Assembly (NCBI GenBank): GCA_027031765.1
Contig: JALVPN010000141.1
Coordinates: 1 to 8,006, forward strand
Length of the DNA: 8,006 bases
Reading direction: 5' to 3'
From: Promethearchaeota archaeon
GTDB taxonomy: Archaea > Asgardarchaeota > Thorarchaeia > Thorarchaeales > Thorarchaeaceae
This document shows, piece by piece, positions 2-8,006 of this stretch. The translations under genes and the position numbers were made by a program. The notes under the pieces were generated by a model, which saw only the letters and a list, made by a program, of their open reading frames with translations, was not told the DNA's origin and did no database searches. Numbering within the stretch: the first letter of the stretch is position 1; each line of letters starts with the position of its first letter.

Positions 2-1150
2 CCACAGATCACTATGGATGTGCCACGGGGCGGGTTCGCATACCTCGCAGAAGGGATTGCCGGGGCTGTCAAAGTGCCCGTTGTCGCCTGCAACAGGATA
101 AACAGTGTGATGCTCGCTGAGAGACTGCTGGCACGCGGCAGGGTGCAGCTCGTGGGCATGGCACGCGGCCTCATTGCTGACCCTGCCCTCCCAGAGAAGG
201 CACGCACCGGACGTGGACGGGAGGTGCGGACATGCATCGCCTGTAACCAGGGATGTCTTGACAGGGTGTTCCTTATGAGACCCGTCACCTGCGCGATAAA
301 CCCACAGGCGGGCTTTGAGGAGGAACGCCATCTGGGGCCACCAGGCCGAGGACGTGTGGCAGTGGTCGGAGCGGGCCCGGCAGGCATGGAGGCAGCACGC
401 GTCCTTGCACTCAGGGGCTTCGAGGTCACGGTCTTTGAGGAGCACACACGACCTGGTGGCACGTTGCGCCTTGCGGCAAGGGTCCCCGGCCGCGGCGAGT
501 TCGCAGCCTACGTGGCACATATGTGGCAGGAGCTGGAACGCCTCGGTGTTGACCTCAGGACTGGAGTGTGCGCACAGCTGGCGACCATAGAGGGAGGTGG
601 GTTCGACCATGTGGTATATGCTGCAGGGACTGTTCCAACGGCGCCACCCATTGACGGTGTCGAGTTGCCCCACGTCACCACCGTACAGGAGGCACTCCGC
701 AGTGGGGCCTCCGACCTCGGCATCACCGCCGTCGTTGGTGGCGGGGCCCTTGGCTGCTACGCGGCCCTGTTCCTTGCACGGAGGGCCAAGGCTGTGCACA
801 TCTTTGAGCCCACTGCAATGTTCGGCGCAGGACTCGGCCGCACTTCCCGCTGGGTCATCCTCAAGATGCTCCGTGGACGTGGTGTCGAGTTCCACCCGAA
901 CACAGAGGTCGACTACATCGTGCACCAGTACGTTGCCGTGAAGGACAGGGAGGGCAACGCGTCGCTCTTCCCGGCAGACTCCGTTGTCCTCGCGCACCCG
1001 CCACAGCCACGCGACAGGCTCCTGGACGCACTGAGGGACAGGGGCATCGACGTCACACCGATTGGTTCTGTTACCGAGCCTATGGACCTGCTCGGATGCG
1101 TGCACGACGCGTTCCGTGTGGCCAACAGGCTGGGGACTGATGAAGAATAG
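2..1150 (+). CDS. fadH: 2,4-dienoyl-CoA reductase (FadH)-like / Old Yellow Enzyme-family flavoprotein with [4Fe-4S], FAD and NAD(P)H domains; 5'-truncated by the window edge
   Basis: The frame is open from base 2 (PQITMDVPRGGF...), so ATG 14 is internal. It has the CIACNQGCLD...VTC 4-Cys cluster motif, the VAVVGAGPAGMEAA FAD-binding Rossmann motif, GGTLRLAARVPGRGEF, a second dinucleotide motif VVGGGALG, and GAGLGRTSRW, which resembles FadH GxGLGKTTGW. Stop TAG at 1148-1150. Exact substrate cannot be determined from sequence. Confidence 0.8.
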   Translation, partial: PQITMDVPRGGFAYLAEGIAGAVKVPVVACNRINSVMLAERLLARGRVQLVGMARGLIADPALPEKARTGRGREVRTCIACNQGCLDRVFLMRPVTCAINPQAGFEEERHLGPPGRGRVAVVGAGPAGMEAARVLALRGFEVTVFEEHTRPGGTLRLAARVPGRGEFAAYVAHMWQELERLGVDLRTGVCAQLATIEGGGFDHVVYAAGTVPTAPPIDGVELPHVTTVQEALRSGASDLGITAVVGGGALGCYAALFLARRAKAVHIFEPTAMFGAGLGRTSRWVILKMLRGRGVEFHPNTEVDYIVHQYVAVKDREGNASLFPADSVVLAHPPQPRDRLLDALRDRGIDVTPIGSVTEPMDLLGCVHDAFRVANRLGTDEE

Positions 1151-1192: not shown

Positions 1193-2421
1193 CTAGGAGT
1201 CCCTGCGTCCCCACAGACCCAGCATGACCGGCAATACGACAAGGACGACCACAGACCCCGAGACTGTCAGTGCTGCTGCCACTGGTGACACCGGTGTCGC
1301 GGGTCTCGGGAAGTTGTCCACCGCGTGGCCAGGGCCCGGAATGATGTACTTGGCACGACCATCGTACGGTGCCCACATGTTCCCTGTCCGGGTGCCGTCG
1401 TCCCACCTGTTGTCCCCGCAGGCATCAAGTGCATTCCCTGCCTGGTTCCAGACGAAGACATTGTCGTAGATACTGTTGCCTGTACTGTCTGCTTCAACAG
1501 CGACCCCATAGAGGCCATTCCTGGTGAGTGTGTTCCCGACCACGGTGACGCCCGTACTCCCAAGGAGCCAGACCCCGTTCCCCGCGTTCGCGGACACGTT
1601 GTTTCCGACCACCTCGGTGTCTGCAGATGCCGCAACCCGGATGCCTGTACCGGTGTTCCCGACAACCACACTGTCGCGCACCCGGCACGCCTGTGTCGAG
1701 GTCAGGAACACCCCCGAGTGCATATATGCCGTGCCTGCCGGCGGGGACGCACCATTGCCGGTCACCTCACACCTGACCACTTCCACCCCACGTGACGAGT
1801 GCACATAGACCCCTGAAGAGGCGCTGTCCCTGACCGACGAGTCCTCGAGCACACAGTTGGCACAGCCCGTAGAGAACACACGCCATTGCCACAGCCCACG
1901 GCCGTGATGTCTGAGAGGGACACGCCCTGGGATGAGACAATGCGCACCCCGTACGTGGAGCCGTTCGCAACAAGACCGCGGACTGTACACTGGCGTGCAC
2001 GCCTGAGCACCACCCCGTCAAGACCGCCGTCCACACGCAGGCCCTCGACAAGGACATTCTGTGCGTTGACCAGTGCAAGACCAGCACCCGTGTCCTGACC
2101 CGCGACCACAATGACGCAGTCGCGCACCTTGAGGTGCAGGCTTGTGTCCGAGACCGAGATGCCGGTACCGTTGGTCTCGATCAGGAGACCCTCGATCAGA
2201 TACGGAGAGGACGGGCTCCCATCACCGGGCCACCCACCCGCTGAGAGCTCGTCGTCCGAAGCGATGACCACAGGCGCATGGGGCACCAGTCCGTCGGCCC
2301 ACCCGGCAGCCGTAGCCGCTGGAGAGGACCGGACACTGCCCCCACCAGGTTGTATGGCACACAGTATGATAAAGGAGAGTACGAGCAGGGCCAGCGGTGG
2401 CCTCAACGATACCCCGGTCAT
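1193..2421 (-). pseudogene. Secreted, C-terminally membrane-anchored parallel beta-helix (NosD/CASH-repeat) surface protein, split by a 2-nt frameshift at about 1876-1881 (true pseudogene or sequence error)
   Basis: The 5' half (ORF 1762..2487, likely start ATG 2421) has a hydrophobic signal segment (RPPLALLVLSFIILCAIQP), an HAPVVI...GWPGDGS..SPYLIEG motif and 22-aa G-V-x-x-x-x-S-x-x-x-x-L repeats. The 3' half (ORF 1193..1990) continues the repeats, then WDDG..GNMW..YDG...Y.IPG....VDNFP and a TM helix followed by basic residues (VVVLVVLPVMLGLWGRR). Each ORF looks protein-like only on its own side of about 1880. Confidence 0.8.
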
Positions 2422-2444
2422 CAACTCACCAGTGGTGGCGGCAG

Positions 2445-2457
2445 TTTTATCCTTTCG
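2445..2457 (-). promoter_or_regulatory. Candidate archaeal BRE/TATA promoter (CGAAAGG-ATAAAA) for the beta-helix gene
   Basis: This is a rare AT-rich patch in a GC-rich intergenic region. ATAAAA lies 24-29 nt upstream of ATG 2421 and is preceded by a purine-rich BRE-like CGAAAG, a spacing that fits a leaderless transcript. The match to the TATA consensus is imperfect. Confidence 0.4.
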
Positions 2458-2515
2458 CGTCGACCGAGCAGTCCCCCAGTCCACCACCTACAGGGTGACA
2501 ACCTACAGCACATAG

Positions 2516-2542
2516 AAAAAATCGGGGGAGGGGAGGTGGGTG
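2516..2542 (-). terminator. Candidate archaeal oligo(T) terminator of the hdr operon
   Basis: The minus strand reads CACCCACCTCCCCTCCCCCGATTTTTT, a pyrimidine-rich tract ending in T6 (A6 at 2516-2521 on +), about 65 nt after the tusA stop. Confidence 0.45.
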
Positions 2543-2585: not shown

Positions 2586-2822
2586 CTACTTGACAGACTC
2601 GAAGTAGAGGGCCCACTCCCCGTCGAGGTCTTCAACTGCAATGAACCTGTGCTTGGTCTTGGCCACCTCGCGCTGCACAGACTCCACCGCCGGAGGGTGG
2701 TCTATGAGCACCCGCAGGATGTTGCCCGGCGGCGTCTTCATCAGGGCCTTCTTGGTCCTGAGCGCTGGGTATGGACAGACCTGTCCACGCACATCGAGTT
2801 CGACATCGTAGTCAATAGCCAT
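2586..2822 (-). CDS. tusA: TusA/SirA/YedF-family sulfurtransferase (sulfur carrier)
   Basis: LDVRGQVCPYPALRTKKAL carries the family CPxP active-site motif, followed by G.ILRVLIDHPPAV; about 78 aa. ATG 2822 has a strong GGAGGT SD 8 nt upstream. An alternative ATG at 2846 overlaps the upstream stop (ATGA). Confidence 0.88.
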   Translation of the reverse strand: MAIDYDVELDVRGQVCPYPALRTKKALMKTPPGNILRVLIDHPPAVESVQREVAKTKHRFIAVEDLDGEWALYFESVK

Positions 2823-2830
2823 GTGTCTGT

Positions 2831-2836
2831 ACCTCC
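2831..2836 (-). promoter_or_regulatory. Shine-Dalgarno site GGAGGT for tusA
   Basis: GGAGGT followed by 8 nt and then ATG 2822. Confidence 0.7.
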
Positions 2837-2842
2837 AATGAG

Positions 2843-3883
2843 TCATTGTATGGCCGACCAGAGGAGCCTGTAGGGGTCCCCCGGGTCGTCACCTGATGAT
2901 ACGATACCCATCTGTCTCAGTACGAGCAGGTGATAGAGCACCTGCCCTGTTGGCGCGTCCAGCCTTGCGGCCAGCTCGTCTGCCGTCACAGCACCGACAG
3001 ACCGCAGCTCTCCGATGACGCGCGTCCTGAGGTCCGGTGTTATGTCAGCGGGTCGATGTGAGGCCTTGCGTGCCTGCGCGGCCTCCACCCGGGACAGGTC
3101 CACATCACCTTCCTCGAAGAGACCGGCACCGATGGCCTCCGCAAGCACCTCCTGACCGCGCTCCGTCAGTGCCAGCACCGTCGTGTAGCCCTTCTGGCTG
3201 CCGGAAAAGCCACACGAGAGGTCTGCATGTACGCCAACAAAGTCGGTGCAGTGTTCACAGCTCTTCATCTTCCGCACCTTGCCGTCCCCGTCCGTGTATG
3301 TGTTCGCGGAACAGAACAGGCCGACTTTCAGGACGCGCACTCCCAGCCTGTCCTCGAGGCGTGACACACCCCGCAGCTCACACGGGAGTCCCACGACAGC
3401 CACTTGCTGGCGCCCGGACTTCAAGACACTGACCAGCTCCGTCATCACACCAGACTGTGAGTACCGTGTGCCGGCGAGGGCGAGCACCTCGGACGGGTCG
3501 GTCACAGTCCTCGCCTCCGGCGCGCGTTTCTCGCCCGCAACTGCAACAACGGCACCGACAGTGCCGGAGCGTAGCAGGTGGCCCAGGAGCGTCGTGACAA
3601 AGCCACCGTTCGATGCACGTTCGAGAACCGCCCCGTCGCGGCTCCTCAGAGAGACCGCCTGTCTGACCTCTGGGAGTCCTTCGCCCAGCTGTTCGGGGTG
3701 GGCCTGTGGGCACAGTTCGAAGCACCTGCCGCAGTGCTTCGCCCCACGGTCCAGGATACACCTCCCTGTGAGGTGTGGCACCCCATCGACCATGGTTATC
3801 GACTTGCAGGTACCGGCGCAGAGGCCACAGCCCTCGCATAGGCCGGCACTGATCACCTGTGAATGGAGCAGCTCAAAGCTCAC
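2843..3883 (-). CDS. FrhB/FdhB/FpoF-family flavoprotein (F420 hydrogenase beta-like) with an N-terminal 2x[4Fe-4S] ferredoxin domain and a C-terminal winged helix-turn-helix
   Basis: N-terminal CEGCGLCAGTC and C-x8-CGRCFELCP. FrhB-type motifs: SNGGFVTTLL, AGTRYS, VGLPCE, GLFC, CEHCTDF..HADLSCG..GS.KGYTTVLALTERG. C-terminal TADELAARLDAPTGQVLYHLLVLRQMGIV matches the ELA..L.......V..HL..L...G.V wHTH pattern. The GTG start overlaps the upstream gene by 11 nt. Confidence 0.85.
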   Translation of the reverse strand: MSFELLHSQVISAGLCEGCGLCAGTCKSITMVDGVPHLTGRCILDRGAKHCGRCFELCPQAHPEQLGEGLPEVRQAVSLRSRDGAVLERASNGGFVTTLLGHLLRSGTVGAVVAVAGEKRAPEARTVTDPSEVLALAGTRYSQSGVMTELVSVLKSGRQQVAVVGLPCELRGVSRLEDRLGVRVLKVGLFCSANTYTDGDGKVRKMKSCEHCTDFVGVHADLSCGFSGSQKGYTTVLALTERGQEVLAEAIGAGLFEEGDVDLSRVEAAQARKASHRPADITPDLRTRVIGELRSVGAVTADELAARLDAPTGQVLYHLLVLRQMGIVSSGDDPGDPYRLLWSAIQ

Positions 3884-5129
3884 ATGACCACTCCCTTATC
3901 AGACCGTTCTCGTCTGTCGTGAATGACACCTTCGTGAAATCGTCCGAGGCCTCACCTCGCACTGCACGCACCTCCACCGGCCCCGGGACAGCGTAGGCCT
4001 CATATGGTGCGTCAGAGGCCTTGACGGGCGTCCTGAAACCACCAAAGAAGACATTCGACATCACGTCGTTCCCACCAATGGCACGGGCCTGTGCCACTGC
4101 CTCGCTGTAGCGTTCAAGGTCAGGGGCACCCCTCAGCTCCCTTAGCACGCGCTGGACCTCACGGAGGCGGCCACGGAGGGCCACGGTCTCCGGTGATGGC
4201 TCAATACCGACCGCAGACTCGTAGGCCTCGACAAGGTTCAGGCACACAGAGATCCCGTCCAGCCCGTAGACCGTTGCTGCCAGCTGTGGTGCCTCCTCGA
4301 TAGGACGGCCCACCATGATGTCGGCATGGAGGCTGCCTGCGCTGGGCTGCCGGCCGGGGAGCCTGAATGCTGTCGCCAGCGTGAACCTGAAGAACGTCCC
4401 GACAACATCTACGAGCCCCTCGGTAATCCCGTCAGGGCCGTCGCCCAGCATGTCTGTGGTCCACTCTGACGCCTCTGTGTGGACATCGACATCGGCGGCG
4501 AGAGAGCCGAAGTAGCCAATCATGCTGGCAGACGGGTCTGCAACACTAGGCACGCAGCCCCTGCATGGAGCACCAAAGTCGACACACCGCTGGGCACAGT
4601 CGAGGGACACAACGCCAGAACACGGGATGCCCTGGTTGTTCATGCACTCGGACGGCGCGGGCACTGACAGCGGCCTTACAATCTGCCCCATCCGTTCAGG
4701 CTTCATAGTGCGCTCGCAGGTCTCGCAGAGCGGACGCCGCTCCCCGGGACCGCCATCGAGGGCGGCCTCAAGTTGCTCCACTGATGGGGGACAGCCGTAG
4801 ACCGCGGTGTCGACGTCGATGGTGTCGGCCAGGGCAATGATGTCCGCACCCTTCTGACGGGCAAGACCGAAGACACCCCCGGTCACTGGACACGTACCAT
4901 ACGCAACAAGGATGTCGTAGTCAACACCCTGCACACGTTGGATGTCGTCAGTAGTGGCAGCACCGGTGACGACCAGGACATCCACATGGCCCACCGACTC
5001 GGGCCCTGGCAGGGAGGGCAACAGGCTGTGAGAACGCAGCTCATAGCCGTCGAGGCCACCGACTGCGAGCGTCTGGAATGCACAGCGGTCACAGCCGCCA
5101 AGCTGTAGCACTGCAACAGACCTACTCAA
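3873..5129 (-). CDS. mvhG: MvhG-type [NiFe]-hydrogenase small subunit fused to a vestigial, non-catalytic MvhA-like large-subunit fragment
   Basis: GCDRC, YGTCP..GG and GCPP give the proximal cluster ligands. LCETC, ECMNNQGIPCSG and DCAQRCVDFGAPCRGC give the medial/distal ligands. DVVGTFFRFTL matches the MvhG C-terminal signature. The extension contains GRPIEEAP, IGG...GGF and GEASDDFTKVSFTTDENGLI. The likely start is TTG 5129, overlapping the mvhD stop; the ORF track gives GTG 5156. Confidence 0.85.
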   Translation of the reverse strand: MSRSVAVLQLGGCDRCAFQTLAVGGLDGYELRSHSLLPSLPGPESVGHVDVLVVTGAATTDDIQRVQGVDYDILVAYGTCPVTGGVFGLARQKGADIIALADTIDVDTAVYGCPPSVEQLEAALDGGPGERRPLCETCERTMKPERMGQIVRPLSVPAPSECMNNQGIPCSGVVSLDCAQRCVDFGAPCRGCVPSVADPSASMIGYFGSLAADVDVHTEASEWTTDMLGDGPDGITEGLVDVVGTFFRFTLATAFRLPGRQPSAGSLHADIMVGRPIEEAPQLAATVYGLDGISVCLNLVEAYESAVGIEPSPETVALRGRLREVQRVLRELRGAPDLERYSEAVAQARAIGGNDVMSNVFFGGFRTPVKASDAPYEAYAVPGPVEVRAVRGEASDDFTKVSFTTDENGLIREWSCEL

Positions 5130-5520
5130 CCCTTGCAGCCCCCAGACAGTCCTCACCGTCAGCCTTCGCAGCGACGTCTTCGAAGTCGCCGAGTGCCGTG
5201 TCGCCCTCCGCAGCCCTCGAGGTGTACATCGTCACACAGTCCATACTGTAGCCCATCTCTTGGAGGAACTTCTTCATGATCTTCATCTTCCGCAGCGTGA
5301 CCATGTTCGCGTTGCTGTAGTGACAGGCACCAAAGCAGCAGCCCACCACCGACACGGCCTCTGCACTGTTGTTGATGGCCGTGAGCACCTCCCGGGGGCC
5401 GACACGCCCGGCACACGGTACGGGCACGATACTTATCCGCGGGTCATACTCCATGCGCAGGACGCCGGCAGTGTTCGCAGCCCCCTGGCCACAGTGCTCG
5501 CACATGAACACAACAATCAC
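5122..5520 (-). CDS. mvhD: Hydrogenase/heterodisulfide reductase [2Fe-2S] subunit MvhD (FlpD-like)
   Basis: IVVFMCEHC..AANTAG..RMEY, VPCAGRV and VVGCCFGACHY..AN match MvhD motifs. The GTG start overlaps the hdrA stop (GTGA), with SD GGGGGTGAT 5 nt upstream. Confidence 0.92.
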   Translation of the reverse strand: MIVVFMCEHCGQGAANTAGVLRMEYDPRISIVPVPCAGRVGPREVLTAINNSAEAVSVVGCCFGACHYSNANMVTLRKMKIMKKFLQEMGYSMDCVTMYTSRAAEGDTALGDFEDVAAKADGEDCLGAARVE

Positions 5521-7520
5521 TGTGTATCACCCCCTGTTGCAGCCGCATCGGCGCTCAGCAGCCCGATGACCTCGGCACGCAGCTGGTAGTCCCTGAAGTT
5601 GCGCACCTGAATCGCACCGGTGGGGCACGCTGGCACACACAGACCGCAGCTCTTGCATGCGGCGTCGTTGACCACTGGGAGGCCGTCCTCACCGATGTTG
5701 ACTGCACCAATCGTGCACGTGGCCATGCAGGCCATGCACTTGATGCACAGTTGCGGGTCTATCTCAGCGGTGTCCATCCGCTTCTCAAGGTACCCCTTGA
5801 CCAGTGGCTGTGCAGCGGCTGAGGCAGCACCACCGGCATGGGCAACGGTCTGGGTGATGTCCTTCGGCCCCTGCACCGTGCCCGCAAGGTAGACGCCATC
5901 ACGACTGGAACGCACCGGGCCCATCTTGATGTGGAACTCCTTGGCAAAGCCCTCCTTCACGCGGAGCAGCTGCAGCTTGCCACCGAGCTTGCCGAAGCCC
6001 TTGGGTGCGACCATGCCGGCTGACAGTAGCACCAGGTCAGCCTCGATGGTCATCGGCCTGCATGCAAGTGTGTCCTCGACCTCGACCAGTATCTTCCCCG
6101 TTCTCGGGTCCGGAATGAGCTCTGCCGGCCGCCCCCGGATGAACCTGACGCCACGTTCCTGGGCCCTCTTGTAGTACTCCTCGTAGTGGAGCCCCGGGGC
6201 CCGGATGTCGATGTAGCAGAAGTAGACATCGGTGTCCGGCAGGTGCTCCTTCACCAGCGAGGCGTTCTTGAGGCCGTACATGCAGCAGACGCCCGTGCAG
6301 TACGCGTTGCCCACCTGCTCGTTGCGTGACCCGACGCACTGCACCACGACCACGGTCTTGGGCACCTTGCCGTCTGAGGGGCGGATGATCTTGCCGCCAG
6401 TGAGGGTGGTCGGTGCCATCATCCTCTCGAACTCGAGCTGAGTGATGATGTCTGGTGACTCGTAGTGGTAGGTCACGATCTCTGTGGGGTCGTACTGTTC
6501 GTAGCCCGTAGCAACAATAATCGTACCGACCTCGAACTTCCGCTTCTCCTTCTTCATGGAGAAGTCGATTGCCTCCACCGGGCAGACGGCCCTGCACGAA
6601 CCACAGTCGATACAGTGTCGCATGTCCACGGTGAACACTGATGGCAGGGCCTGTGGGAACGGCTTGTAGACCGCCTTGCGCAGGCCAAAGCCCATGTCCC
6701 ACTTGTTGGGGAGCTCCACAGGACAGACCTCTGCACAGCGCCCACAGGAGGTGCAGTTGTCATGGACGAACCGCGGCTGTGTGGTGACCTCCACTATGAA
6801 GTTACCCATCGAGCCCTCCACATCCGTGACCTCACTGAGCGTGAGCACCTCGATGTCAGGGTGGTTCATCACGCCGTTGAGCAGTGGGCTTATGGTACAC
6901 ATGGGGCACTCGTCAGTGGGGAACGTCTTGTTCAGCATGGTCATGTGACCGCCAATGGACGGCTCACGCTCCACCAGGACCACCGGGATGCCGAGCTCGG
7001 CAACGTCCATCGCAGCCCGCAGTCCCGCAACGCCACCGCCAATCACCATCACGCGCTTCGTCACCGGGATCTTGGTGGTCTCCACAGGCTCTACAAGTCT
7101 GGCTCGGGCAACGGCACCTGCCACCAGTCGTTTCGCCTTGCGGGTAGCCTCCTCCCTGCTCTCTGTCACCCACGAGTCCCACTCACGGATGTTGCACTGT
7201 ACGTGCTTGTGTGGGTTGAGGCCCTTCTCGGCAATGGCCGTGGCGAAGGTCGCCCAGTGCTGCTCTCTTGAACAGGAGGCGACCACGGTGGCTGTCAGGC
7301 CGTGCTCCTCCACGGCCCTCTTCACGAGCTCCACGCCCTGTTTTGAACACATGAACAGGTAGTCTGTGGCGTACTCCACATTGGGGAGGCCCCTAGCAAA
7401 ACGGGCCACCTCAGCCACGTCCACCTTACCGGCGATGTTCTCACCACAGTGGCATACGAAGACGCCCACCCGCGCCTCCTCGGAGGACCCGTCCGCAGCG
7501 GCAGGCCGTGCACCGGTCAC
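5517..7520 (-). CDS. hdrA: Heterodisulfide reductase flavoprotein subunit A
   Basis: RVGVFVCHCG, VIGGGVAG (FAD), SIGGHM..LNKTFPTDECPMC, an inserted ferredoxin (CTSCGRCAEVCP, CIDCGSCRAVCP), QLEFERM, QCVGSR....NAYCTGVCCMYGLKN, GVYLAGTVQGPKDI and a C-terminal ferredoxin (CIKCMACMATC, CKSCGLCVPACP). The start is reassigned from ATG 7673 to GTG 7520 because the extra 51 codons overlap hdrB and the intergenic spacer. Confidence 0.95.
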   Translation of the reverse strand: MTGARPAAADGSSEEARVGVFVCHCGENIAGKVDVAEVARFARGLPNVEYATDYLFMCSKQGVELVKRAVEEHGLTATVVASCSREQHWATFATAIAEKGLNPHKHVQCNIREWDSWVTESREEATRKAKRLVAGAVARARLVEPVETTKIPVTKRVMVIGGGVAGLRAAMDVAELGIPVVLVEREPSIGGHMTMLNKTFPTDECPMCTISPLLNGVMNHPDIEVLTLSEVTDVEGSMGNFIVEVTTQPRFVHDNCTSCGRCAEVCPVELPNKWDMGFGLRKAVYKPFPQALPSVFTVDMRHCIDCGSCRAVCPVEAIDFSMKKEKRKFEVGTIIVATGYEQYDPTEIVTYHYESPDIITQLEFERMMAPTTLTGGKIIRPSDGKVPKTVVVVQCVGSRNEQVGNAYCTGVCCMYGLKNASLVKEHLPDTDVYFCYIDIRAPGLHYEEYYKRAQERGVRFIRGRPAELIPDPRTGKILVEVEDTLACRPMTIEADLVLLSAGMVAPKGFGKLGGKLQLLRVKEGFAKEFHIKMGPVRSSRDGVYLAGTVQGPKDITQTVAHAGGAASAAAQPLVKGYLEKRMDTAEIDPQLCIKCMACMATCTIGAVNIGEDGLPVVNDAACKSCGLCVPACPTGAIQVRNFRDYQLRAEVIGLLSADAAATGGDTQ
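5526..5534 (-). promoter_or_regulatory. Shine-Dalgarno site GGGGGTGAT for mvhD
   Basis: It lies within the hdrA 3' end, 5 nt before GTG 5520. Confidence 0.65.
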
Positions 7521-7581
7521 GTCATGCGCACTGCTCTCCCCGTGGGACTCGCTCCTCTGCTCCTGCCTGTCCTTCTCCTTT

Positions 7582-8006
7582 TTATCCTTCTTCTTCGTCT
7601 TCGTCTTCGTCAAGAGGGGCCGCCTCCAGCTTGAAGTCACTTGCTGTGACCTGGTACTTGATACCGACATCATCCATCCCCATGCAGAAGGCCACGAGCT
7701 GGGAGATGTGGATCACAGGGATGTTGAAGTCGGTCCCGTACTGTTCGTTGAGTGTCTTCTGCCCGCCATCAAACTGCAGGTGACAGAAGGGGCAAATGTC
7801 GATGATAGCCTCGGCGTCGCTCTCGGCAATTGCGGCCATCTTCTCGCCCAGCATCTTCATTGACGTGTCAGCATGAGCTGCCTTGACGCCGCCACCAGCA
7901 CCGCAGCAGGCGTGCTTCCGCCGGTAGTCCACACACTCCACTCCGAGGGCCTCGAGGAAGTCCTCAAGTATGGTCGGGTCCTCGGGGTCGTCAATCTGTT
8001 TGATAT
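7582..8006 (-). CDS. hdrB: Heterodisulfide reductase subunit B, C-terminal part (CCG domain); 5'-truncated by the window edge
   Basis: The frame is open from the window end (IKQIDDPEDPTILEDFLEALGVECVDYRR). CCGAGGGV and DICPFCHLQFD are CCG-domain/non-cubane cluster motifs; IPVIHISQLVAFCMG follows. Stop TAA at 7582-7584. Confidence 0.93.
   Translation of the reverse strand, partial: IKQIDDPEDPTILEDFLEALGVECVDYRRKHACCGAGGGVKAAHADTSMKMLGEKMAAIAESDAEAIIDICPFCHLQFDGGQKTLNEQYGTDFNIPVIHISQLVAFCMGMDDVGIKYQVTASDFKLEAAPLDEDEDEEEG
7588..7611 (-). repeat. Short purine microsatellite (GACGAA)3(GAA)2 encoding the acidic tail DEDEDEEE of HdrB
   Basis: Read directly from the sequence: gac gaa gac gaa gac gaa gaa gaa, just before gga taa. 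Confidence 0.7.

Follow-up and report, generated by a model that had tools for sequence, protein, structure and literature searches.

What does a heterodisulfide reductase (Hdr) complex reduce in an archaeon that is not a methanogen, and why does its operon end in a gene for the sulfur carrier TusA? The question is raised by the first 8006 bases (hereafter the window) of a 12,027-base contig, C141, from a Thorarchaeote genome (2.95 Mb, 95% complete). The minus strand of the window carries, in this order, the 3′ end of hdrB, hdrA, mvhD, an MvhG-like fusion (427 amino acids, aa), an FrhB-family protein (346 aa) and tusA. The operon does not start inside the window, and the contig continues with the rest of hdrB, hdrC and, as the first gene, a member of the DsrE family. 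The whole module comprises nine genes: a dsrE-like gene, hdrC, hdrB, hdrA, mvhD, the mvhG-relic fusion, frhB::wHTH and tusA, together with a divergent Lrp/AsnC gene. With the dsrE-like gene first and tusA last, it is bounded by a sulfur carrier at each end. A sequence-only reading of the window had proposed that HdrB might act on the persulfide of TusA (TusA-SSH) rather than on CoM-S-S-CoB, the heterodisulfide of coenzyme M (CoM) and coenzyme B (CoB). That interpretation is partly supported by the present analysis. Across Asgard archaea, tusA almost never separates from this operon type, and sulfur bound to the carriers is a candidate substrate of Asgard Hdr that can be tested.

The end of the operon contains two features:

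2586..2822, minus strand: tusA, 78-aa sulfur-carrier protein, last gene of the operon (Pfam TusA match, fold model and Shine–Dalgarno site)
2517..2522, minus strand: T6 run, candidate archaeal oligo-T terminator at the operon end, ∼65 nucleotides (nt) past the tusA stop codon, read from the sequence

The open reading frame (ORF) that the sequence-only reading had named as a terminal tusA, at 2586-2846 on the minus strand, is a real gene. Its product matched Pfam TusA/SirA (PF01206) with an E-value of 1.7e-21 and 76.2 bits, against a cut-off of 28.6. The longest ORF extends to 2846, but translation probably begins at its second ATG (2822) and yields 78 aa, since this ATG has its own Shine–Dalgarno sequence (GGAGGT) 8 nt upstream, the relatives are 76–78 aa long and the stop codon of the frhB-like gene lies 20 nt before it. 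The alternative first ATG would overlap that stop codon as ATGA. A scan for sigma-70 promoters and hairpin terminators, which is of bacterial type and ill-suited to archaea, returned nothing usable, and the T6 run is the sole feature resembling a terminator. The catalytic cysteine of TusA lies in GQVCPYPAL (VCPYP); Cys16, Pro17 and Pro19 were unchanged across 16 orthologues. The AlphaFold2 model (16 orthologues) reached a pLDDT (predicted local distance difference test score) of 90.5 and showed a two-layer beta-alpha-beta-alpha-beta-beta fold, in which the cysteine immediately precedes the helix 18-29. The best superposition was with YeeD/TsuB (8j4c, 8k1r; template modeling score, TM, 0.89-0.91), and E. 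coli TusA of the IscS-TusA complex (PDB 3lvj) gave a TM of 0.84. The best NCBIfam match was the YedF selenium-metabolism protein (E 8e-11), under the cut-off. The same genome encodes a second tusA on contig C222, 72% identical and directly followed by dsrE, dsrF and dsrH. The two copies differ by a synonymous divergence (dS) of ∼1.8 with a ratio of nonsynonymous to synonymous divergence (dN/dS) of 0.10, and hence both are kept under purifying selection.

To follow the operon type through the phylum, the MvhG-like fusion was used as the marker. Its family is tiny, with 13 clusters at E ≤ 1e-30 among 1.84 billion representative proteins, and full-length orthologues occur in ∼80 of 400 species genomes of the phylum. 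A total of 76 marker loci were fetched, and their six-frame ORFs were labelled with profiles seeded from the Thorarchaeial operon. The genomes compared are related, so that locus counts are not independent events. The absence of tusA from most syntenic copies, named beforehand as a refutation of the earlier proposal, did not hold. The gene tusA lay on the same strand downstream of the frhB-like gene in 66 of 70 loci with at least 4.1 kb of downstream flank, and the gap between frhB and tusA was 15-53 nt in all 66 (median 34 nt). The four apparent exceptions comprised L047 (G164) and three with the gene still close by, namely G329 (tusA divergent, upstream of the operon), G378 (tusA on a contig ending in hdrC) and one Loki genome with tusA after an insertion. 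At least one tusA was present in 44/44 loci with both flanks, two of them in 39/44, and at least one dsrE-family gene was present in 52/52 loci with enough upstream flank. The placement of tusA varies from last in the operon, as in the window, to divergent and upstream (G329, G323), or followed by dsrEFH (G312, G313, G321). A linkage that outlasts several such rearrangements is stronger evidence than static synteny.

The TusA encoded after frhB (the ‘down’ copy) forms a clade of its own with a support of 99/96, apart from the ‘up’ copy that heads dsrEFH in Loki clusters; the cysteine is retained in 66 ‘down’ and 44 ‘up’ copies. Among 185,579 species genomes scanned, 85 carried the ‘down’ clade, and all kept loci were Asgard. 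An frhB-like gene lay upstream of the ‘down’ tusA in 66/66 of these loci, and hdrA was present in 56/57. In the home family of the host, the ‘down’ TusA was found in 8 of 86 genomes, spread over six genera, with adjoining Hdr genes in 8/8; the sole family genome seemingly without the marker has its contig end just after hdrA. TusD/DsrE orthologues occurred in 4/86 genomes of the family, and all four bear Hdr. A length-based search, which is weak evidence on this point, found no TusA fused to any Hdr subunit or other protein.

Some of the loci show further arrangements. In three Loki loci (L067, L071, L090), the GltD insert is missing from the frhB-like gene and a further hdrC-hdrB pair comes after tusA, recalling the hdrC2B2 of the sulfur-oxidizing sHdr systems. 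In Promethearchaeum syntrophicum MK-D1 (L097, NZ_CP042905.2, ∼649-669 kb), the tusA-dsrEFH block adjoins a second, divergent hdrC-hdrB-hdrA-mvhD-ferredoxin cluster (DSAG12_01134-01138), which places the sulfur relay between two Hdr operons. The transcripts of DSAG12_01139-01151 in MK-D1 were at ∼180-350 reads per kilobase per million (RPKM), the typical genome level, which is uninformative on regulation. Two DsrE-like ORFs of the same family as the host (G318:C13:19031-19384 and G319:C24:23655-24002) contain one in-frame TGA each, and such TGA-bearing DsrE-like ORFs of Thorarchaeia possibly encode selenocysteine proteins.

Homologues of the DsrE-like protein also led to the same operon in a true methanogen, Methermicoccus shengliensis (GCA_013330515.1, L206:10001-17183), where the order is dsrE, dsrE, hdrC, hdrB, hdrA, mvhD, MvhG-like fusion, FrhB with helix-turn-helix (HTH) and tusA, and the flanking genes are typical of a methanogen. 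The layout is shared by two Methermicoccaceae metagenome contigs. Identity between the M. shengliensis and Thorarchaeial proteins was 35% for FrhB, 51% for HdrB, 59% for HdrA and 63% for TusA. In a tree of HdrA, the two Methermicoccus sequences are sister to the Thorarchaeial clade on a long branch, and transfer may have gone either way. A binning error behind the label ‘Methermicoccaceae’ was rejected, since the operon is present in M. shengliensis assemblies with methanogen flanks and its HdrA has its own long branch. The operon has been named FrhBG-HdrA2B2C2, a putative ferredoxin-dependent F420:CoM-S-S-CoB oxidoreductase, with tusA and dsrE unmentioned (Kurth et al., 2021, PMC8630106). In the published data, RNA from Amam_01016 (tusA) through Amam_01024 (dsrE) covaries over two strains and four substrates, with ranks of ∼440-1240 in AmaM (four substrates) and 46-642 in ZC-1 (two substrates), and the flanking Amam_01015 and Amam_01025 depart from this pattern (PMC8630106 Table S2). 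Separate transcription of tusA would have spoken against the earlier proposal; in M. shengliensis its RNA tracks that of the operon. This is the sole available expression evidence for co-regulation of tusA with this operon type.

The genome was searched for sulfur and cofactor genes with positive controls for every search, and absences are relative to its 95% completeness. The sequence-only reading had found no mcr or com genes in the window, and the same held genome-wide for the alpha subunit of methyl-coenzyme M reductase (MCR_alpha, mcrA) and for ComA, the two markers searched among the possible CoM/CoB routes. DsrC/TusE, YeeE/YedE, rhodanese and the sulfite reductase NIR_SIR were not found in the genome either, and the MnmA family gave a lone 21-bit N-terminal fragment, no clear MnmA. 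With TusE/DsrC not found and MnmA not clearly found, the Tus pathway for 2-thiouridine in tRNA is incomplete. Three cysteine desulfurases are present (two of SufS type and one of NifS/IscS type), and the host could load TusA with sulfur from cysteine. Of the genes that the earlier reading had listed for a genome check, the cysteine desulfurases and DsrE-family genes were thus present, and mcrA, comA and rhodanese were not found. Two genes encode the F420 ligase CofE. The [NiFe] hydrogenase large subunits of the genome lie on contigs other than that of the operon, and the three GcvH/lipoyl-carrier family genes are on contigs C40, C100 and C101, none near the operon, one of them inside a 326-aa open frame.

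Taken together, there is good support for a functional connection of the sulfur relay with Hdr, from the linkage of tusA, the exclusivity between TusA clade and operon, the Methermicoccus RNA, the dsrE genes and the presence of cysteine desulfurases where DsrC, rhodanese and YeeE were not found. Because TusD/DsrE and the TusA clade are rare in the home family and always accompany Hdr, they are not housekeeping genes.

What the relay would be linked to follows from the other genes of the operon, of which these lie in the window:

2843..3883, minus strand: flavoprotein of the FrhB/FdhB family, ferredoxin motif at the N-terminus and winged helix-turn-helix at the C-terminus (Pfam FrhB_FdhB_N, FrhB_FdhB_C)
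3873..5156, minus strand: MvhG-like Fe-S small subunit fused to a C-terminal extension, 427 aa (Pfam Oxidored_q6, residues 39-133)
5122..5520, minus strand: MvhD, [2Fe-2S] connector (Pfam FlpD E 6e-30; NCBIfam VhuD E 1e-22, under the equivalog cut-off)
5517..7673, minus strand: full-length HdrA, bifurcating flavoprotein with ferredoxin domains (NCBIfam HdrA2 E 3e-227, likewise under the equivalog cut-off, as are all NCBIfam scores of HdrA and MvhD)
7582..8006, minus strand: 3′ part of hdrB, catalytic subunit with two CCG motifs (Pfam CCG; the gene extends to contig position 8478)

The description of the Hdr as methanogen-type stands, as the HdrB motifs CCGAGGG and CPFCHLQFD, a full-length HdrA and a separate MvhD are all present. 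HdrB has two CCG domains, and all checked cluster cysteines were kept in 66/66 Asgard orthologues; the methanogen HdrB chains 8rvu and 5odc matched it with an E-value of 5e-87. Residues 68-705 of HdrA (∼650 aa) align to positions 1-640 of the HdrA2 model, and the first ∼65 residues of its ORF overlap hdrB in another frame. At 7582-7673 (minus strand), the Lys-rich first ∼30 residues of the HdrA ORF are an out-of-frame reading of the acidic tail of HdrB (..DEDEDEEEG), and the true hdrA start is probably a GTG or TTG past the hdrB stop at 7582. Neither HdrA nor MvhD contains an in-frame TGA. In the MvhG-like fusion, the small-subunit domain was the only one matched; no [NiFe] large-subunit Pfam domain was found in its 427 aa, and its NCBIfam VhuG/FrhG matches were weak. 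The active [NiFe] large subunit MvhA is absent from the operon, and NiFeSe_Hases matches were obtained only on other contigs. The FrhB-like flavoprotein is likely the F420H2-oxidizing input subunit; its HTH Pfam matches were weak and its NCBIfam FrhB/FpoF matches were under the cut-off. At the other end of the module, the DsrE-like protein is ∼117 aa long if read from the second ATG, and its VCGxC..RG motif was kept in at least 95% of 30 homologues. The Lrp/AsnC-family regulator lies outside the window (contig C141, 9530-10063, plus strand), divergent from the dsrE-like gene. Its orthologue is found inside Loki clusters, between dsrE2 and hdrC, and hence the gene is a conserved member of the module. 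A 205-aa ORF (‘unk205’, contig 9478-10095, minus strand) on the strand opposite to the regulator was rejected as spurious, the real gene being the regulator.

On the reading preferred here, the module would encode a hydrogenase-independent, flavin-based electron-bifurcating Hdr. Electrons would enter at the FrhB-like flavoprotein, from F420H2 in the Thorarchaeial form, as suggested by the two CofE genes, and from NAD(P)H in the Loki relatives, as suggested by the GltD insert in their FrhB. By homology to the Mvh-Hdr and Elp-Hdr structures, they would pass from the MvhG relic to MvhD and on to the flavin of HdrA, where the path would split. One branch would reduce ferredoxin; the other would lead via HdrC to HdrB, and an S-S bond would be cleaved at its two non-cubane clusters. 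This bond may belong to sulfane sulfur delivered by the operon's own carriers, in the form of a polysulfide, a persulfide on TusA or DsrE, or a mixed TusA-S-S-DsrE species. The carriers could be loaded, e.g., by the cysteine desulfurases of the genome, and the products would be H2S and free carriers. What the data show are the gene identities, the operon structure and the nearly obligate association of the module with this TusA clade and with dsrE genes; the electron path, the identity of the oxidant, the reaction direction and any direct docking of TusA on HdrB we infer. That HdrB reduces carrier-delivered sulfane sulfur is nevertheless the best single reading of the locus, adopted here tentatively and at slightly less than an even chance. 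The wider proposition, that in Asgard archaea and one methanogen family the ‘heterodisulfide’ of Hdr is sulfane sulfur presented by TusA/DsrE and not a coenzyme pair, so that cysteine or polysulfide sulfur would serve as the high-potential sink that pays for ferredoxin reduction, is advanced as a plausible possibility and with somewhat greater reserve.

Several observations weigh against the reduction of carrier-delivered sulfur by HdrB. HdrB is 50-55% identical to CoM-S-S-CoB reductases. In the structure 5ODR, the sulfonate of CoM contacts backbone Gly46 and Gly198, the carboxylate of CoB contacts Arg201, its phosphate Arg14 and Arg240, and its alkyl chain Phe233 (PMC13261682). In the Thorarchaeial HdrB (5ODR numbering), Arg14 and Phe233 are retained, position 201 is Lys and position 240 is Gly. 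The 66 Asgard HdrB sequences retain Arg14 throughout (66/66) and Phe233 in 65/66; at position 201, 61 have Lys and three have Arg. None of the 66 has Arg at position 240. M. marburgensis HdrB, a genuine CoM-S-S-CoB reductase, has Val at position 240; it too lacks Arg240, and therefore the loss of this residue in Asgard archaea is weak evidence for carrier-delivered sulfur. HdrB2 of M. shengliensis retains all of Arg14, Arg201 and Arg240. By its residues, the Asgard pocket looks altered yet still apparently built for a small anionic ligand. The retained residues would suit a small anionic disulfide in a narrow channel better than the cysteine of a folded protein. Since HdrB keeps most residues of the CoB/CoM pocket, its turnover of TusA-SSH is something we infer. 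Moreover, TusA lacks a flexible arm like that of DsrC or the lipoyl arm of LbpA, the search for TusA fusions was negative, as given above, and the same operon sits in a true methanogen, where it has been read as an F420H2:CoM-S-S-CoB reductase. Persulfide and polysulfide potentials (∼-260 mV) may also be too low to fund ferredoxin reduction from F420H2 or NAD(P)H. Such a pocket speaks against simple docking of folded TusA-SSH but could admit a small disulfide, a polysulfide or a species of the thiosulfonate type. A docking site formed by the acidic HdrB tail and a basic TusA was considered and rejected, as the tail is not conserved and both TusA clades are equal in charge.

The main rival follows from the same residues. 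HdrB may reduce a small-molecule (hetero)disulfide, CoM-S-S-CoB in Methermicoccus and a low-molecular-weight thiol pair in Asgard archaea, in which case TusA and DsrE would not be substrates and would rather supply sulfur for the thiol or clear adventitious persulfides and polysulfides from it. Arg14, Lys/Arg201 and Phe233 are kept in 64-66 of the 66 Asgard HdrB, the match to methanogen HdrB is strong, a methanogen carries and expresses the operon, annotated as FrhBG-HdrA2B2C2 and with an HdrB2 bearing all three arginines, and the substrate of Asgard HdrABC is still called an ‘unidentified’ heterodisulfide in the field (PMC11291895). However, searches of the 95%-complete genome gave neither MCR_alpha nor ComA, the cluster holds no candidate genes for biosynthesis of a thiol cofactor and Arg240 is lost in all 66 Asgard copies. 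Nor does a small disulfide specifically explain why a TusA clade should be dedicated to the operon or why a cluster can have as many as five sulfur carriers, and this explanation is considered doubtful. A different role for the carriers, as maturation or housekeeping sulfur donors (assembly of Fe-S or non-cubane clusters, thiolation of tRNA or cofactors) merely co-regulated with hdr, is distinctly unlikely. TusA is a general sulfur hub fed by cysteine desulfurases, of which the genome has three, E. coli IscS-TusA (PDB 3lvj) is among the fold matches and the complex would hold many Fe-S clusters; yet the Hdr of canonical methanogen operons matures with no TusA dedicated to it, the carriers of the home family (TusD/DsrE in 4/86 and the TusA clade in 8/86 genomes) always occur with Hdr, and TusE/DsrC is absent with MnmA not clearly found.

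The remaining two explanations concern the direction of the reaction and the element carried. The module may run oxidatively or by confurcation, either oxidizing carrier sulfane sulfur or sulfide as in sHdr or using reduced ferredoxin and a thiol pair to reduce F420 or NAD(P)+. In its favour, the sulfur-oxidizing sHdr is supplied by TusA and DsrE3 (PMC11094781), Asgard Hdr complexes are regarded as confurcating by the MK-D1 authors, and the second hdrC-hdrB pair after tusA in three Loki loci recalls the sHdr order. Against this, HdrA is of the full-length bifurcating type with MvhD and not a short sHdrA, the cluster contains no LbpA gene (the three GcvH-family genes lie elsewhere), and the hosts are anaerobic fermenters with no high-potential acceptor identified, which makes the oxidative direction improbable. 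Finally, the TusA-like and DsrE-like proteins could handle selenium, not sulfur, for selenoprotein Hdr/Mvh subunits. The YedF match noted above would suit such a role, several Asgard lineages have a selenoprotein HdrA, selenium depletion in M. maripaludis raises the transcripts of TusA and TusD by 4.5 log2-fold, and some Thorarchaeial DsrE-like genes have an in-frame TGA. However, neither HdrA nor MvhD of this operon has a TGA, the YedF match is limited to the generic TusA domain, and the nearest relatives of known structure carry thiosulfate and sulfur; the selenium explanation is hence regarded as very improbable.

The reduction of carrier-delivered sulfur can be compared with known systems. 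The HdrABC-MvhAGD and ElpABC-HdrABC complexes of hydrogenotrophic methanogens (PDB 5ODC/5ODR, 8RVU, 9SW2; PMC12350162) share with the present module both CCG motifs of HdrB, the full-length HdrA and the separate MvhD. The likeness to Elp-Hdr extends to the input arm, where a flavoprotein of FrhB/FdhB type is accompanied by a relic subunit devoid of catalytic function in the place of an active hydrogenase. In contrast to these complexes, MCR and ComA were not detected in the Thorarchaeial host, the relic derives from MvhG/MvhA and not from FdhA, Arg240 of the CoB site is lost, and genes for TusA and DsrE, which are not described for the methanogen complexes, are fixed in the operon. FrhBG-HdrA2B2C2 of M. 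shengliensis (PMC8630106) has an identical gene order, with two dsrE genes in front, a C-terminal HTH on FrhB and a terminal tusA; it differs in that M. shengliensis is a methanogen with CoM and CoB.

TusA persulfides had been tied in the sequence-only reading to the sulfur-oxidizing sHdr. The link itself is established, as tusA is linked to 302/397 shdr clusters (PMC11094781), but it is no longer drawn for sHdr alone, since the figure legend of a 2025 preprint (10.1101/2025.07.22.663070) has Asgard Hdr reducing TusA- and DsrE-bound persulfides. The sHdr-LbpA system with TusA/DsrE3 (Hyphomicrobium, Aquifex, Sulfolobales; PMC11094781, PMC4175335) is likewise an Hdr-type complex genetically tied to TusA/DsrE transferases. 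Unlike the present module, it has a short sHdrA, no MvhD and two HdrBC pairs (hdrC1B1A-hyp-hdrC2B2), depends on LbpA and works oxidatively in sulfur oxidizers; the Thorarchaeial operon has a single hdrCB pair, and neither the sHdr-type gene order nor an adjacent LbpA gene was found. A precedent for a CCG non-cubane subunit (DsrK, HdrB/D-like) that reduces protein-bound sulfur via a relay of TusA, DsrEFH and DsrC is DsrMK(JOP), acting on the DsrC trisulfide (PMC10861901). However, the Thorarchaeial genome yielded no DsrC, the protein whose C-terminal arm is flexible, and DsrK is membrane-linked and non-bifurcating.

Another version is the Loki cluster (MK-D1 DSAG12_01139-01151, Lokiarchaeum ossiferum and the Nerearchaeum preprint 10.1101/2025.07.22.663070), which shares orthologous hdrCBA, mvhD, mvhG-relic, frhB and tusA genes and the ‘down’ TusA clade. 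The Loki form adds tusA-dsrEFH-dsrE2 and an Lrp gene in front and has a GltD-type NAD(P)H module inserted in FrhB. The Thorarchaeial form has a single DsrE-like gene with VCGxC, FrhB::wHTH and a divergent Lrp gene, with one TusA also heading dsrEFH. The MK-D1 paper lists the orthologous genes with no comment on sulfur carriers. The idea of Hdr acting on carrier-bound sulfur is not new, having been proposed in the 2025 preprint. What is new here is the Thorarchaeial architecture, the joint presence and absence at family level, the comparison of pocket residues and the Methermicoccus operon with its expression data.

Two further loci of the window lie beyond the end of the operon. At 2-1150 (plus strand) are the C-terminal two thirds of an OYE/FadH-type (OYE, old yellow enzyme) Fe-S flavoenzyme (E 2e-82), which resembles 2,4-dienoyl-CoA reductase, BaiCD or bilirubin reductase and is convergent with a beta-helix gene. 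The latter, at 1193-2487 (minus strand), consists of two overlapping ORFs, 1762-2487 and 1193-1990, that match the N-terminal and C-terminal parts, respectively, of NosD/right-handed beta-helix models. The pair looks like one ∼430-aa surface protein with a frameshift near 1870-1990, i.e., a pseudogene or an assembly error.

Hdr complexes are among the most transcribed energy genes of Asgard archaea, and a sulfur relay inseparable from the operon names a concrete candidate for their substrate. The presence of the operon in a cultured methanogen, where it is highly expressed in M. shengliensis ZC-1, provides a practical test system. If HdrB has another substrate, that substrate must still explain five sulfur carriers travelling with the enzyme. 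If HdrB does reduce carrier-delivered sulfane sulfur, the closest prokaryotic relatives of eukaryotes would have a new, sulfur-dependent kind of electron bifurcation. Ferredoxin reduction in Asgard archaea would then be tied to the turnover of cysteine and sulfur, which would bear on hydrogen-sulfur syntrophy models of the origin of eukaryotes.

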